Positions 42,001 to 51,000 of a stretch of 64,000 nucleotides of DNA are shown piece after piece. Positions within the stretch are counted from its first letter, which is position 1. Each line of letters opens with the position of its first letter. The DNA lies in NCBI GenBank assembly GCA_016939375.1, contig JAFGHF010000024.1:9828-73827 (forward strand), in the 5' to 3' direction. A program made the position numbers. Origin of the DNA: Candidatus Omnitrophota bacterium (lineage in GTDB: Bacteria; Omnitrophota; Gorgyraeia; JAFGHF01).

Positions 42001-45000
42001 AGTCATTTTAGCCGTCACTTTTGTCTTACTGGTTAAAGAGAAAATGCATAGCAATGAGATAACTGGTAAAGTTAAGACTTCTTTTCAGATCGCTGCTCTT
42101 GGTGTCTTAGTCTATATGCTGGGACTTATATCAGGATGGCCGGGCCTTTTGTCACACTTTAGCCGCTACAAAGCGTCCTTAATGGGAAGCGGCTACGCTG
42201 TTTTTTCGCCCACGACAAACTTTCCGGAGCTTATGGAGCGGTTTTTTGACTTTGCTAAAGTATTGTTGGCCAGCTTTGGCCTTCCTTTCTCGCTTTTGAT
42301 CTTATCAGGTTTGTTTGCTTATATTTTAAAGTTTAAGAAACAACCTAAGGAGATGGTGATGATCATTGTAATGATGGCCTCTTATTTCTTAGTAGCGATA
42401 GCTATTTATAATTATGCCAGCATTAGATTTGTTATCATCTCTTTACCTCTTCTTGCCATTTTTGCAGGTTTAGGGATCTATGCACTATATTCTAAAGTCA
42501 AGTTTCGCCCGATCAGCATTTGCCTGTTTACTATTTTATTTGTCTATTCTCTTGCTTACACCTTAAGAGCAGACTTAGTCTTTGTTAAAAAGGACACCAG
42601 ATATGAATGTAGCCAATGGATAGTTAAAAATATCCCTAAGGGCGCGTCTATCGAGATAACAAGACCGCTATACAATCTCTTTTCGTCATTTATCTTAGAT
42701 GACTATGAGGTCATTTTTTGCGGCACCAGCTCTCAAGATTCTGGGTTCGATGCAGACGGTTTCAGTCTTTTTTATAAACAAGATATAGAAGGCCGCAAAA
42801 AGGCAAAAGAAAAATACTTTGCAAAGTTAAACCAAGGCAATATTTCAGTAGATTATATTATTCACAGCAGTTGGGAAAGCAGATTTCTTGACGAAGGCTT
42901 GGAAGATTTGCAACTTATAAAGGAAGGTAGAAATTTTCTTAAAAATCTATTTGAGGGCAAATTTGATTATCGCTTGCTAAAGACCATCTCTTATCCGGAA
43001 TCCTTGTTTTGGAATCCACGGCCCAACGGCACTTGCCCCACGATATATGTTTTTAAGAAAGAAAAGATATAGATATGGATATGTACGATAAAGGCAGAGT
43101 TAAGATAATATCCTCAGCGGTGCTATTGGGCATTGCCCTGGGGGTCTGTTGGACATTCGCTCAAGACTTCGCCCTGGCCCTTATTTTTTCTTTACTGCTC
43201 ATATGTTTGGTCAGATCATTAAAGATAGAGGATCATCGTTTTATCTTTACCGCTTTTATGGTCGCATTCTGTTTAAAGATAGTATTTATTCTTTTCTACT
43301 ATTACTTTTGGCTCTGCCCAGGCAATATCGGCGTCATCGGCCCAGACGGAGAAGTCTTTTCCCAGCGGGGATGGTATATTTCAAGAGTCTTACTTGGGGA
43401 AGGCTTGGATTCCGTGCCTACGGCTGAACGGCCGTTTCTATTCCAGAGGGCCATAGCGCAGCGTTTTAACTGGCAGCTGCCCCCCGTGGATGTATATCAA
43501 ATAGGGCTGTTTTCCTATCTGATAGGCTATTTTTATTTGATCTTTGGATACAGCAACCTGGCCATAAAGTGCATCAATGCCTTTTTAGGCACATTCTGCG
43601 GAATAATCGCATATTTTATCGCTAGGCCTCTTTTTGGCAAGACCCCGGCACGGATAGCGTTGATCCTGACTATATTTACCCCTACATTGTTCTTATTTTC
43701 TACAACAAGCTTGAGGGATCCCAGCGTAAATGTCTTGTTTTTATCCGTGTTTTGGGCGATCACCAGATTGAATTTAGGCAAAGAGAGCCGCCGAATCCTG
43801 TATTTGCTTATTGTCTTTTCTGTGGCCATGATCTATTTCCTGCGCCAGCCTTATTTCTATCTGTTATCAACGATAGTGGCGCTCGCCCTATTTTTTGATT
43901 TTATCTCCAGTAGAAAGAAGAGGTTTGTCCTTGTCTCGCTGGCATGTATTTTTCTTATCACTACTCCCGTACATGCCAGATACATACATAGGGTATTGCC
44001 TAAATTGAGCGTGCCGCTTATCGTAAAACGCCATTTTGCTTTTATTTTGATGGGTGGCAAAAATACCTATAGGTTTTATCCGCAAAGGTTTTATGTCCCC
44101 AGAGAGGTACCCGATATCAAACATTTGGCAGAGATGACTACTGCTGAGCTTTTAAGCTCTTATACAAAAGGAGTAGCCTATTTTATGTTCCTGCCTTTTC
44201 CTTGGGAATTGCAAAGAAAAGTATCGCTTTTCTTATTGCCGCAGACGTTGGTCTGGTATTTTCTTTTTCCGTTTGTTTTGCTTGGGTCTTTGTTGGCGCT
44301 CAGATACAAGTTTAGGCAGACTTGCTTGGTTATACTGGCACTATTTTTGGCTATTTCCTTTATGGCTTTGGGCGAGGGCAATATCATGGCCGCTATCAGG
44401 CATAGGGATGTGCTATTGCCTTTATTCTTTATATTTGCCTCCGTAGGGCTGGTAAAGGCTTTTGCAAGGTTAGAACCGATAGGTAGGAGTTAAAGATGTG
44501 CGGTTTTGTGGGGTTTGTCGGCCATCATGACGACCGGCTATTAGAAAGGATGAACGCGAGGATCGCTCACCGTGGGCCGGATGATGTCGGTTACTTTTCC
44601 AGGGACAATGTGAATCTGGGACATCGTCGACTCAGTGTACTGGATCTTTCAAGTGCAGGCCACCAGCCTATGTCAAATGAGGATGGGACTATTTGGTTGG
44701 CCTATAATGGAGAGATCTATAATTTTAGACAATTAAGGGAAATATTGCTCAAAAAAGGGCATAAATTCAAATCACGCTCAGATACAGAGACGATCATCCA
44801 TGGATATGAAGAGTGGGGTATTGAGATAATCAAAAAGCTCAACGGTATGTTCGCTTTCGCTATTTATGATTCTGTGAAAAAAAAGGTAATCTTGGCCAGG
44901 GATAGGATCGGTGAGAAACCGCTTTTTTACGCACAGGTAGGCAAACATTTCTATTTCGCCTCGGAAATACAGGCGCTTTTGCAGGTCGATGAGCTCAAGG

Positions 45001-48000: not shown

Positions 48001-51000
48001 CAGGATATAGATTCTTTGCCTTTTCCCGATAGAAGCAGATTGAAATTCGATAGGTACCTTTGGAGCGTACCCAAAAAAGGAACCCTTATTTTAGCTACTA
48101 TCCTATCCACCAGAGGCTGTCCTTTTCAATGCATCTTCTGTTCCCAAGATAAGATGTACGGTAGAGTGGTAAGGTTTAGGAGCCCGCACAAAGTAGTGGA
48201 TGAGATAGAGGACATTGTGAAGAATACGCCTGCGCGGCACATCATCTTTTGCGATGATACCCTTACATTGAAAAAGTCGCACATCCTGGGGATCTGCGAT
48301 GAGATCATCAAGAGGAATATCAAGATCACTTTTGAGGGCTGGACCAGAGCCAATACGATAGATGAGGAAATTTTAGCCAAGATGAAAGAAGCCGGATTGG
48401 CCCGGGTATCTTTCGGTATTGAAAGTGGAGATCCACAAGTATTAAAGATCATCAAAAAGGGGGTTACGCTGGAAGAGGTCGAAAAGGCCTATAAGATAGC
48501 CAAAAAACTGGGCTTGGAGACCAGGGGTTCTGTGATGATCGGCCATCCCGGCGAGACCAAGGAGACGGTCTGGCGTACCATAAATTTTATCAGGAACCTC
48601 AAAGAACTGGACCATCCTTATCTTAATGTGGCCATGCCCTATCCAGGAACGGAGCTAAGGGAAATGGCCTTACGGTCTGAACATGGGATAAAGCTACTGT
48701 CCACCGATTACACTGACTTGCGCCGCTACGATAACGCGATTATGGAAATAAACGATTTAAAACCCAATGACTTGATCAAGTTGCAGAGAAGGGGTTTGCT
48801 CTTAGCTTACATGACCCCCCGCAGGATTTGGTACAATTTAACACGTGCAGGCTTAAAAAGCGGCCTTTCCAACGGGGCAGCTTTTTGTCTGAGCTTTGCC
48901 AAGGGCTTATTAAAAGAGGCCAGATTAGGATTATGGAAGACCTTAAAGCTTTCCAGTGTTCGTCGCTCGCAATCCGAGAGGCAGTAAATTACTATCGCTG
49001 GCTTTACAACGATTTTAAGGATTATATAGGAGATAGCATCCTTGAGATCGGGGGTGGTATAGGCAACTTTTCCAATTTATTGTCTGATAGGAAAAGGCTG
49101 GTTATCGTCGATATCGTAGAGGAAGTAGTGCAAAGGCTGGATAATATATTTGAAGATAAGGCTAATGTCTCCGTCTTCAAGGCGGATATTTGCGACAAAG
49201 GTTTTGTGGATTCAGTCATAAAAAATGGCTTCGACACCATAATCTGCGTCAACGTCTTAGAGCACATAGCGGATGACATAGGAGCGCTTAAGAATATGCG
49301 TGAGCTTCTAAGCACAAGAGGAGGGCACTTGCTTTTGTTGGTGCCGGCGCATGAAATTTTGTTCAGCGATCTGGATAGGGTTGTCGGTCATCACCGCAGG
49401 TATAACAAAAAGCCGTTGAGGCAAAAGTTGGAGCAAGCAGGATTCAGCATCAATAAGCTTTATTACTTGAATTGTCTGGGTGCGATCGGATGGTTCATAA
49501 ATTATAAGATCCTTAAATACAAAGAGGTGGTCTGCCAGTCAACGGACCGACAGATAAAGATTTTTGACAGATTCCTCGTGCCTTTGGTTTCCCGGATGGA
49601 AAGCATATTGAAGCCGCCATTTGGGATTTCTCTAATAGCTGTTTGTGATACTAAGCCGTATACAAAATAAAGGAGTCAAATCATGGAAGGTTGCAGTATA
49701 GTGATCCCAGTTTATAATGAACAAGAGAAGGTTAGGTCGACGATAGAGCAGTTAAAGGATGAAGCCGGCAAGCTGGGCCTGGATCACGAGATCATAGTTA
49801 TAAACGATGGCTCTACTGACGATACGGCAAAGGCGATCAGAGGTTCTGATGTAAAGCTGATCACGCATCCTCAAAGGTCAGGCTACGGCAAGGCGATACA
49901 GAGCGGGATATTGAGTTCAAAACATGAACATGTGGTCATCATCGATGCAGACGGCACATATCCGATAGAATCCTTAGGCAAGCTTTGGAAGTTCGCCAAA
50001 GATTACGATATGGTCGTGGGCGCGCGCAAAGGTAAATATTATAAGGGCTCTATCATTAAAAATCCGGCCAGACAGATCTATCTATGGTTGATATGGTATG
50101 TGACCGGCAAAAAGGTACCCGATGCCAATTCCGGATTTCGTATCTTTAAGAAAAGCGTGATCCTGCCGTTTTTCTCGCACCTTTGTCTGGGTTACTCATT
50201 TACCACTACGCTCACTTTATACCTGCTTTCGCGCGGGCATTTTGTGAAATTCGTACCGATTAAATACTATAAGCGCTCGGGAAGGTCGAAGGTGAGGCAC
50301 ATAAGGGATTCGCTGGGGACGCTGCAGATCATCATCCAGGCCATCATGCTCTACAATCCCATAAAGGCCATTTTACCTTTGTTTCTTTTATTCTTTATTT
50401 TTGGGTCCTCTTCCATCTTCTGGTATATGTTTAGGGACAATAATACGGCTTTTTTCACAGCAGGCATTTTTTCTTTCGGTATTTCGGCTTTAATCTTTGT
50501 AGCCGGCTTAATAGCCGACCTATTGGTAAACCTAAAACATTTAAAGGAATAAGACTTATAGATGAGAGCTTTATATATTTCCTATGATGGTGCGACAGAA
50601 CCTATAGCTGGTTCGCAGATAATCCCTTATTTGGAAAAGCTGGCTGCCAGGGGCGTGAAGTTTTTTCTGGTTACTTTTGATAAGAAAGAATATCTGGCAG
50701 ATGACGGCCAGGTTGTTAATACCAAGGATATTTTTCGAGCAAAGGGGATTGACTGGTTTAGTCTGCGCTATCATAAGCGGCCTACGGCATTGGCTACTGC
50801 ATGGGATATATTCCATGGATTTATTGTCAGCTTTTATATAGTCTTGAAGGAAAAAATATATATCGTCCATGCCCGCAGTTATGTATCTGCTTTAATAGCT
50901 TTGGGCTTAAAGTTTATCCTACGCAGGAAGTTTGTCTTTGATATGCGTGGCTATTGGGCGGATGAAAGGATTGACGGACAGATTTGGCCCGAGGGCTCGG

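Follow-up and report, generated by a model that had tools for sequence, protein, structure and literature searches.

The window analysed here is a 64,000-nucleotide (nt) stretch of a Candidatus Omnitrophota bacterium (assembly GCA_016939375.1, contig JAFGHF010000024.1, positions 9,828 to 73,827 of the forward strand), and it carries a glycan locus in which a cobalamin (B12)-binding radical S-adenosylmethionine (SAM) enzyme is encoded among an AsnB-type amidotransferase, two class I SAM methyltransferases and a family 2 glycosyltransferase (GT2). Domains were called with Pfam and NCBIfam profiles and their scores set against the curated cutoffs. The five genes are as follows.

44496-46445, + strand: glutamine-dependent AsnB-type amidotransferase, 649 amino acids (aa); GATase_7 1.5e-47, Asn_synthase 1.5e-99 (Pfam).
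46198-47484 (open reading frame, ORF; revised start 46390, 364 aa), + strand: class I SAM methyltransferase with a Trm112 zinc ribbon; Trm112p 7.5e-07, Methyltransf_11 9.4e-18.
47497-48987, + strand: B12-binding radical SAM enzyme, 496 aa; B12-binding PF02310 3.9e-24, Radical_SAM PF04055 8.6e-30.
48828-49670 (ORF; revised start 48933, 245 aa), + strand: second class I SAM methyltransferase, NodS-like; Methyltransf_23 1.9e-14.
49683-50552, + strand: GT2 of the polyprenyl-phosphate type, 289 aa; Glycos_transf_2 1e-27, residues 5-159.

An earlier note on this DNA had described the first four genes as a tailoring sub-cluster, and each was recovered as a consecutive + strand ORF with unambiguous domains and intact catalytic motifs. 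The AsnB homologue retains an N-terminal MCG (residues 1-3, with the cysteine of an N-terminal nucleophile (Ntn) glutaminase) and an SGGIDS PP-loop at residue 261, the two methyltransferases carry CPAC/CQGC and DAGCGQG, and EIGGGIG, respectively, and the C208-x3-C212-x2-C215 (CxxxCxxC) motif of the radical SAM enzyme is invariant across 41 homologues. The two revised starts, which that note had already placed within the upstream genes, are backed by alignment to the syntenic homologues of a locus designated L001: the alignment of the first methyltransferase (48% identity) begins at ORF residue 65, giving start 46390, and Met36 of the second fits the alignment to its counterpart (39% identity), giving start 48933. 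With these starts the first methyltransferase gene overlaps the AsnB gene by 56 nt and the second overlaps the radical SAM gene by 55 nt, since the AsnB homologue (649 aa versus 626 aa in a homologue) and the radical SAM enzyme (496 aa versus about 470-489 aa) both possess short C-terminal extensions relative to their homologues.

The neighbourhoods of 12 close homologues of the radical SAM enzyme (47-73% identity, plus L003 at 45%) were compared with those of about 80 distant paralogues. The distant set came from a genome scan, consists mostly of paralogues below 40% identity and served as the comparison set; a metagenome scan with the single radical SAM protein gave seven distant loci at 28-31% identity. 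The arrangements that bear on the composition of the cassette are listed below, percentages being identities to the window proteins.

L090: radical SAM enzyme (73%) and GT2 (72% to the 49683-50552 product) alone, between unrelated PfkB kinase and aldolase genes.
L092: AsnB (frameshifted), radical SAM enzyme (61%), GT2.
L001: AsnB (58%), Trm112-type methyltransferase (48%), radical SAM::methyltransferase fusion (63%), methyltransferase (39%), GT2 (cut by the contig end).
L003: radical SAM enzyme, methyltransferase, GT2.
L093: GT2, radical SAM enzyme, methyltransferase, second radical SAM enzyme.
L100: GT2, radical SAM enzyme, methyltransferase, second radical SAM enzyme, then a PMT_2 GT-C gene and more glycosyltransferases.
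L002: GT2, second radical SAM enzyme, radical SAM::methyltransferase fusion, Epimerase_2, YfhO.
L097: second radical SAM enzyme, radical SAM enzyme, GDSL, PMT_2, with a GT2::methyltransferase fusion upstream.
L098: methyltransferase, radical SAM enzyme, LPG_synthase_TM, second radical SAM enzyme, GT2.
L099 (Nanoarchaeia): GT2, radical SAM enzyme, second radical SAM enzyme, PMT_2, PMT, third radical SAM enzyme, GT2.

The association of the radical SAM gene with a GT2 gene was quantified by a phmmer search with the window GT2 as the sole, neutral query, a homologue being counted if it lay within 3 kb on the same strand. Such a homologue accompanies the radical SAM gene in 8 of the 13 close-subfamily loci versus 8 of the 83 distant-paralogue loci (Fisher p = 8e-05, or 3e-04 with the window left out), and an AsnB homologue is near in 3/13 versus 3/83 (p = 0.03), p-values that are indicative only, as the loci are small in number, share phylogenetic history and stem from several collections whose flanks differ in length. 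At the Pfam level a GT2 lies within about 6 kb in 11 of the 13 close loci. On the strength of this graded series of loci and of the adjacency counts, the conserved core of the cassette is, as judged from gene content, the radical SAM enzyme with the GT2, often joined by AsnB. The earlier note had taken the unit to be four genes in which the radical SAM enzyme is flanked by two methyltransferases; this grouping did not hold, as the comparative loci show the methyltransferases to be dispensable and the conserved partner to be the GT2 at 49683-50552, which its 3′ end at 49670 had left out. The 3′ boundary should thus be moved to 50552.

The methyltransferases appear from the same comparison to be accessory components of the cassette, because the nearest relatives range from the radical SAM enzyme and GT2 only to the full five genes. 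The Trm112-type enzyme is absent from both L090 and L092, and L003 has a methyltransferase in the same slot as the second enzyme of the window (radical SAM-methyltransferase-GT2). The idea that class I methyltransferases are obligate partners of the radical SAM enzyme was rejected on account of their absence from L090 and L092. Searches of the PDB with both methyltransferases returned generic class I matches only, giving no assignment to O-, N- or C-methylation. Several proteins elsewhere join such domains in one chain: radical SAM::class I methyltransferase fusions occur as P0003 (L001, 3439-5556) and P0120 (L002, 10001-12145), and a GT2::class I methyltransferase fusion occurs in L097 (2348-3610). 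The methyltransferase portion of P0003 is closest to the methyltransferase between the radical SAM genes of L093 and L100 and to the window product of 36668-37363, and is not similar to the window methyltransferases at 46390 and 48933.

Sequence comparison suggests that the GT2 of the cassette is of the type that glycosylates polyprenyl phosphate. Its GT-A domain (DAD motif at residue 88) is followed by C-terminal transmembrane (TM) helices at about 216-250 and 255-287, and its top PDB matches are ArnC (9hwj, 9bhc, 8vxh; three sequences, six entries), GtrB (5ekp) and DPMS (5mlz), with E-values of 1.7e-12 to 2.2e-09. The best NCBIfam models, all below cutoff, are AglJ, Dol-P-hexose transferase, ArnC and PpgS, and the GT2s beside the radical SAM gene in other loci yield the same list of models; no HpnI or HpnB model matches the window GT2 at E<=1e-3. 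Homologues at 43-51% identity are named 'polyisoprenyl-phosphate glycosyltransferase' by the Joint Genome Institute (JGI). Directly upstream of the cassette lie another GT2 gene and three genes for polytopic membrane proteins.

39086-39835, + strand: GT2 glycosyltransferase, 249 aa; Glycos_transf_2 5.5e-22.
39859-41364, + strand: polytopic membrane protein, 501 aa, with about 9-11 TM segments.
41366-43072, + strand: GT-C-type membrane glycosyltransferase (PMT_2, ArnT-like), 568 aa, about 10 TM segments; PMT_2 30.9 bits versus a cutoff of 26.1.
43075-44493, + strand: GT-C-type membrane glycosyltransferase (PMT_2, ArnT-like), 472 aa; PMT_2 33.3 bits versus 26.1.

The GT2 at 39086-39835 has no TM helix, is separated from the next gene by 23 nt, and matches PgfS, ArnC, PgaC, PpgS and AglJ best among the NCBIfam models, all far under cutoff; it is a peripheral part of the block and may be a second lipid-phosphate sugar synthase. 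The product of 39859-41364 has no Pfam or NCBIfam match even at E<=0.1, yet phmmer finds weak similarity to the PMT_2 protein beside the L100 radical SAM gene (9e-06) and to membrane proteins encoded close to the radical SAM genes of L082 and L020, and it is possibly a GT-C-like transferase. The last of the three, whose gene ends 2 nt before the AsnB gene, carries, itself or through its homologues, the names 'glycosyltransferase family 39' and '4-amino-4-deoxy-L-arabinose transferase-like' in the source databases. The top 16 Foldseek matches of its AlphaFold2 (AF2) model in the PDB are all GT-C proteins (AglB, PglB, STT3, ArnT) at probabilities of 0.99-1.0, with TM-scores of 0.31-0.47 and weak E-values of 2e-03 to 8e-02. 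GT-C genes lie near the radical SAM gene in the window, L002 (YfhO, two copies), L097 (PMT_2), L099 (PMT and PMT_2) and L100 (PMT_2). Three-component extracytoplasmic glycosylation systems are characterised by just such a pairing of a polyprenyl-phosphate GT2 with GT-C enzymes (PMC11127046).

Between 39086 and 52681 every gene lies on the same strand, with intergenic gaps of <=23 nt or overlaps, and a scan for consensus promoters and terminators found sites at chance frequency. For these reasons the block looks like one transcription unit, and the five-gene cassette at 44496-50552 is probably co-transcribed with the upstream genes at 39086-44493. In the window as a whole, every ORF of >=200 aa is on the + strand, bar one 213-aa shadow ORF (57436-58077, minus strand) within a + strand ATP-grasp gene, and the cumulative GC skew rises monotonically across positions 1-64000.

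By its domains the radical SAM enzyme clearly belongs to the B12-binding class, within an uncharacterised subfamily. PF02310 scores 85.2 bits (cutoff 32.1; residues 20-135) and PF04055 104.5 bits, and the AF2 model has a mean predicted local distance difference test (pLDDT) score of 93.8, exceeding 95 in the B12-binding domain. The subfamily comprises at least 120 database clusters, all at >=488 bits and >=46% identity to the window enzyme, from bacteria, Hodarchaeota and Nanoarchaeia (among the clusters listed); the names they carry, where any, are generic or misleading ('radical SAM', 'YgiQ', 'BchE cyclase'). The classification by hidden Markov model (HMM) that the earlier note proposed was carried out, and no NCBIfam model reaches its curated cutoff. 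Below BchE and HpnJ, which are dealt with further on, the scores (in bits, followed by the cutoff) are 179/360 for the ladderane lipid enzyme (TIGR04072), 171/750 for ApyD, 151/450 for BzaD, 140/575 for Sden_1168, 139/600 for PhpK, 137/360 for MJ0865, 128/650 for HpnR, 107/500 for AprD4, 107/282 for TIGR03975 (a C-methylase of ribosomally synthesized and post-translationally modified peptides, RiPPs) and 85/700 for KedN5; methylase models such as PhpK, MJ0865 and HpnR thus rank lower than the two leading ones. The earlier note had named a grouping with non-methylating families such as BchE as grounds against its reading; nominally that is the outcome here, but both leading scores amount to less than half of their cutoffs. 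Foldseek with the AF2 model finds TsrM, MgmA, AprD4, OxsB, CysS and TokK about equally similar (TM-scores 0.65-0.72, E 3e-24 to 9e-18); neither the sequence nor the fold searches of the PDB separate methylases from non-methylases. In a published similarity network BchE, HpnJ and the ladderane enzyme share the main cluster with many methylases, and Fom3, MoeK5 and HpnJ still cluster together at higher stringency (PMC9204698); because the network mixes methylases (Fom3, MoeK5) with HpnJ, similarity cannot decide between the two kinds of reaction. Methylases make up most of the characterised cobalamin-dependent radical SAM enzymes, among them GenK, Fms7 and MoeK5, which act on sugars (PMC9204698), and on this analogy we lean slightly towards C-methylation as the radical step. 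Modification of a RiPP or other peptide was rejected, given the ApyD score of 171 bits against 750 and no precursor peptide or peptide-pathway context. A carbapenem-like pairing of a beta-lactam synthetase with the B12 radical SAM enzyme was likewise rejected, as the AsnB homologue retains its glutaminase cysteine and the context is one of glycan biosynthesis.

By its motifs, the AsnB homologue would activate a carboxylate by adenylation and turn it into an amide. The earlier note had likened it to WbpS, acting on a uronic acid. This remains reasonable in that the best NCBIfam model is TIGR03108 (eps_aminotran_1), the family in which WbpS, WbqG and Porphyromonas gingivalis PGN_1234 are placed, a deletion showing that PGN_1234 makes the uronamide (PMC7468200); it is weakened in that the score of 553.5 bits falls below the curated cutoff of 816.9 and a generic asparagine synthase model is passed as well. 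Among PDB sequences the best matches are the hydroxyamidotransferase 7ylz (233 bits) and Escherichia coli AsnB 1ct9 (170 bits), and a relationship to the human ASNS structures is also clear. A uronic acid substrate would be available, because genes for two UDP-sugar 6-dehydrogenases and for WbpB/E/D/I-like enzymes are present in the window; the WbpA/B/E/D/I set that the earlier note placed elsewhere in the locus has candidates at the domain level, at the following positions.

8844 and 13181, + strand: UDP-sugar 6-dehydrogenases (UDP-glucose/GDP-mannose dehydrogenase family).
24761, + strand: DegT protein.
25897, + strand: GFO_IDH_MocA protein.
28645: hexapeptide acetyltransferase.
34549, + strand: Epimerase_2.

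WbpS-like uronamide formation by the AsnB homologue is therefore plausible on homology and gene context.

Taken together, we tentatively propose that the four genes of the earlier note form the tailoring part of a five-gene cassette whose product is a decorated, lipid-linked sugar to be transferred on the outer side of the membrane. The enzyme classes are established from the domains, and all steps of the model are inferred from them. The GT2 would load one sugar from a nucleotide sugar onto undecaprenyl phosphate in the manner of ArnC, GtrB and DPMS; this sugar is probably a uronic acid supplied by the UDP-sugar dehydrogenases and Wbp-like enzymes of the locus. AsnB would adenylate the sugar carboxylate and form the carboxamide with glutamine-derived ammonia, and the radical SAM enzyme would take a hydrogen from an unactivated sugar carbon, to which the methyl group of methylcobalamin would then be delivered, a C-methyl sugar being the somewhat favoured product. 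The two class I methyltransferases may add O- or N-methyl groups. The lipid-linked sugar would thus probably be both amidated and radically modified, and the amidation, radical and methyl steps may take place after loading, on the lipid-linked sugar, or before it, on the nucleotide sugar, the sequence being compatible with either. Finally, the decorated lipid-linked monosaccharide would be flipped to the other side of the membrane, where a GT-C enzyme would attach it to an acceptor glycan at the outer face of the inner membrane. Precedents for tailoring of lipid-linked sugars include ArnD, NaxD, AglP and the moenomycin enzymes MoeF5 and MoeK5. Tailoring on the lipid before the GT-C step is further described for the Und-P-pentofuranose epimerase ORF13 and DprE1/E2 (Kelly et al. 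2024, PMC11127046), and GenK, Fms7, MoeK5 and HpnJ are cobalamin radical SAM enzymes that act on sugars (PMC9204698). The fuller proposal, in which the radical SAM enzyme C-methylates or ring-rearranges the lipid-linked monosaccharide before GT-C attachment to the cell surface and the cassette has spread by horizontal transfer among Omnitrophota, Thermodesulfobacteriota, other uncultivated bacteria, DPANN and Asgard archaea, is possible but doubtful.

Several observations weigh against this proposal, beyond the limits on the adjacency p-values. The close homologue loci L095 and L101 have no GT2 nearby. No small multi-TM flippase of the GtrA, GtcA or ArnE/F type was found in the 39-51 kb region or in the window, the sole small multi-TM ORF (19603-20052) being SxtJ-like. 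Support for the GT-C assignments is modest (PMT_2 at 31-33 bits, a pLDDT of 71 for the 43075-44493 model and Foldseek E-values of 2e-03 or weaker), and no glycan structure is known for any cassette-bearing organism. As for the individual enzymes, the two highest NCBIfam scores of the radical SAM enzyme belong to the non-methylating BchE (TIGR02026; 209.9 bits against a cutoff of 481.35) and HpnJ (TIGR03471; 181.2 against 577.6), the best PDB sequence match of its core is the cobalamin-independent sugar diol dehydratase AprD4 (E 3.7e-25 with the single sequence, 4.9e-39 with a profile), and the AsnB homologue passes the generic asparagine synthase equivalog TIGR01536 (497 bits versus a cutoff of 267).

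The flippase result would suit an unlikely alternative, in which the four enzymes tailor soluble cytoplasmic nucleotide sugars (to uronamide, C-methyl and O- or N-methyl derivatives), ordinary Leloir glycosyltransferases build the main repeat unit, the adjacent GT2 being one of them, and the GT-C-like proteins act as polymerase, ligase or similar. The locus is indeed rich in nucleotide-sugar enzymes and in GT4 and GT2 transferases and encodes a Wzx-like flippase (30463, + strand), and the position of the WbpS step within the Wbp pathway is not known (PMC7468200), so that action on a nucleotide sugar is possible. The two-TM architecture of the GT2 and its nearest solved relatives are however those of polyprenyl-phosphate monosaccharide synthases rather than of repeat-unit GT2s, L090 has the radical SAM-GT2 pair by itself and not within a glycan locus, GT-C enzymes are repeatedly found next to the pair, and the methyltransferases are not conserved partners. 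The AsnB homologue could also be a housekeeping asparagine synthetase that lies in the locus by chance, the other genes alone being glycan-related, as its score on TIGR01536 and its kinship to the E. coli and human enzymes would allow. This is improbable: the score on the WbpS-type TIGR03108 is higher, the order AsnB, radical SAM enzyme, GT2 is kept in the syntenic loci L001 and L092, radical SAM paralogues of L033 and L045 have an AsnB homologue no more than about 1 kb away, loci of the close subfamily are enriched in AsnB, and the gene is joined to its neighbours by a 2-nt gap upstream and an overlap downstream. The conserved synteny with the radical SAM enzyme and GT2 in itself argues against a housekeeping role.

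The BchE, HpnJ and AprD4 matches concern the radical step, and the cassette as proposed could be retained with a radical SAM enzyme that does not methylate but carries out an HpnJ-like contraction of a pyranose to a cyclitol ring, an AprD4-like 1,2-diol dehydration to a deoxy sugar, an epimerisation or an oxidative cyclisation on the lipid-linked sugar. HpnJ itself acts downstream of the GT2 HpnI on a lipid-linked hexosamine, and any methyl group could come from the class I methyltransferase that often neighbours the radical SAM enzyme or is fused to it. We nevertheless regard such a non-methylating reaction as rather unlikely. The BchE and HpnJ scores are under half of the family cutoffs; AprD4 aligns with the radical SAM core only, its N-terminal domain giving 4.3 bits, whereas the B12-binding domain is strong here; the GT2 is devoid of an HpnI or HpnB match; the window has no chlorophyll context for a BchE-type role, and no hopanoid genes were seen among its domain calls; and the prevalence of methylases among the characterised members, BchE and HpnJ being exceptions (PMC9204698), favours C-methylation. 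A lipid substrate, with the enzyme methylating or cyclising the polyprenyl chain of the carrier or a glycolipid in the manner of Gmm, GrsA/B, HpnP/R or the ladderane enzyme, is highly improbable. Several of the nearest HMMs are lipid enzymes (HpnJ, TIGR04072 and HpnR), the archaeal tetraether methylase Gmm is reported to be 31% identical to MoeK5 (PMC11214058), and Bathyarchaeia, where Gmm homologues abound, carry distant homologues of the window enzyme in tandem arrays. Against this, the context of nearly all close loci is glycan biosynthesis with no lipid-synthesis genes, the conservation of a carboxylate amidotransferase alongside the enzyme speaks for a sugar acid, and all model scores are far under their cutoffs.

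Further genes of note in the window, all on the + strand, are the following.

3865-8817: two GGDEF diguanylate cyclases (one with GAF) and an LptD-like outer-membrane protein, immediately 5′ of the sugar genes.
17799-19616: NodU/CmcH-type carbamoyltransferase (Carbam_trans_N/C).
19603-20052: the small multi-TM SxtJ-like membrane ORF, directly 3′ of the carbamoyltransferase.
21054-23458, 23461-24738, 29256-30476 and 37392-39062: sulfate activation genes (CysD-like PAPS_reduct, CysN-like GTPase) adjoining three alkaline-phosphatase-superfamily proteins (Phosphodiest and Sulfatase families).
53775-54542 and 56595-58336: transglutaminase-like protein, metallophosphoesterase and ATP-grasp enzyme (PylC-like N-terminal domain) amid glycosyltransferases.
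58342-59493: Methyltransf_23 with Methyltransf_14 ('C-methyltransferase C-terminal domain'), the architecture of TylC3-type NDP-ketohexose C-methyltransferases.

Because of this TylC3-type architecture, the product of 58342-59493 may already provide the locus with a conventional, non-radical route to a C-methyl branched sugar. The window further contains two RmlD-like genes (12295 and 51794) and at least 8 epimerase/dehydratase genes of the short-chain dehydrogenase/reductase (SDR) type. The sulfate-activation and phosphatase-superfamily genes hint at a sulfated or phospho-substituted glycan, the transglutaminase-like, metallophosphoesterase and ATP-grasp proteins may attach an amino acid or other non-sugar substituent, and the upstream GGDEF genes suggest control of the locus by cyclic di-GMP. 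A carbamoyltransferase is likewise found near the radical SAM-GT2 cassette of L093. In other loci, split transketolase/E1-type thiamine pyrophosphate (TPP) enzymes and SPASM radical SAM proteins recur beside the cassette (L002, 17401-18703; L097, 13039-15058 and flanks), which suggests extra two-carbon branching or other radical steps in loci of this kind. L007, L008, L019 and L083, from Bathyarchaeia and other metagenome-assembled genomes, contain four to six B12 radical SAM paralogues per neighbourhood, and these clustered paralogues may be related to the Gmm-like homologues reported in Bathyarchaeota (PMC11214058).

The components of the cassette are of known kinds. No paper connecting B12 radical SAM enzymes with polyprenyl carriers, glycosyltransferases or polysaccharides came up in literature searches, and a recent Omnitrophota genome preprint does not discuss the cassette; the combination of a cobalamin radical SAM enzyme beside a polyprenyl-phosphate GT2, with recurrent GT-C enzymes, AsnB and methyltransferases, in bacterial and archaeal candidate phyla, is thus undescribed in the searchable literature, which is absence of evidence only. 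The cassette suggests an undescribed way of decorating cell-surface glycans, and to our knowledge this would be the first time that cobalamin radical SAM chemistry is seen to serve the primary assembly of a cell-envelope glycan and not an antibiotic or hopanoid pathway. If the proposal is true, cobalamin-radical sugar chemistry reaches from a few such pathways to the assembly of cell-surface glycans, unusual residues (C-methylated or ring-rearranged uronamides) are predicted in organisms with as yet unanalysed envelopes, and the radical SAM enzyme and lipid-carrier GT2 would offer glycoengineers a compact two-gene module for installing such sugars. The generically or misleadingly labelled clusters of the subfamily would gain a testable substrate hypothesis from genomic association. 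If the proposal is wrong, the region is an ordinary, richly equipped tailoring stretch of a polysaccharide locus.

Among known systems, the GtrA/GtrB/GtrC, ArnC/ArnD/ArnT, CsbB/GtcA/YfhO and Und-P-pentofuranose systems (PMC11127046) resemble the cassette in a GT2 with C-terminal TM helices, related to ArnC, GtrB and DPMS, and in the GT-C-fold membrane transferases of the same block, and in several of them soluble enzymes remodel the lipid-linked monosaccharide before export. They differ in having a GtrA or ArnE/F-type flippase, for which no counterpart was found in the window, and in pairing one GT-C with one GT2, whereas three GT-C-like and two GT2 genes are present here; a cobalamin radical SAM enzyme, AsnB or methyltransferases are not described for them in the searchable literature. 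The hopanoid side-chain enzymes HpnI/HpnK/HpnJ share the use of a GT2 and a B12 radical SAM enzyme on a lipid-linked hexose, and HpnJ, a non-methylating enzyme (PMC9204698), is the second-best model; the distance of that score from its cutoff (181 versus 578 bits), the GT2 free of HpnI/HpnB matches and the hopanoid-free context set the two apart. WbpS, whose role was shown genetically (PMC7468200), WbqG and PGN_1234 are approached through TIGR03108, the intact glutaminase cysteine and PP-loop, and the presence of Wbp-type di-N-acetyl-uronic acid genes and two UDP-sugar dehydrogenases in the same locus, at a score well under the cutoff of that family. The aminoglycoside enzymes GenK, GenD1 and Fms7, likened by domain make-up, combine a B12-binding domain with a radical SAM core and act on unactivated sugar carbons (PMC9204698), but do so in antibiotic pathways on free pseudo-oligosaccharide substrates. 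Finally, the moenomycin unit F enzymes of Streptomyces ghanaensis (MoeF5, MoeK5 and MoeM5) represent the same enzyme classes as found here, the likeness being drawn at the level of class. MoeF5 is an AsnB-type amidotransferase and MoeM5 a carbamoyltransferase, and together with MoeK5 they turn one lipid-phosphate-linked uronic acid into a C-methylated uronamide. The carbamoyltransferase is paralleled by the NodU/CmcH-type gene at 17799-19616, and MoeK5 is listed as a cobalamin radical SAM C-methylase (PMC9204698). Moenomycin is a secondary metabolite built on farnesyl-phosphoglycerate, whereas the window cassette would use a polyprenyl phosphate carrier in the making of a cell-surface glycan; as regards enzyme classes the parallel is nonetheless striking, an analogy that serves as a lead.

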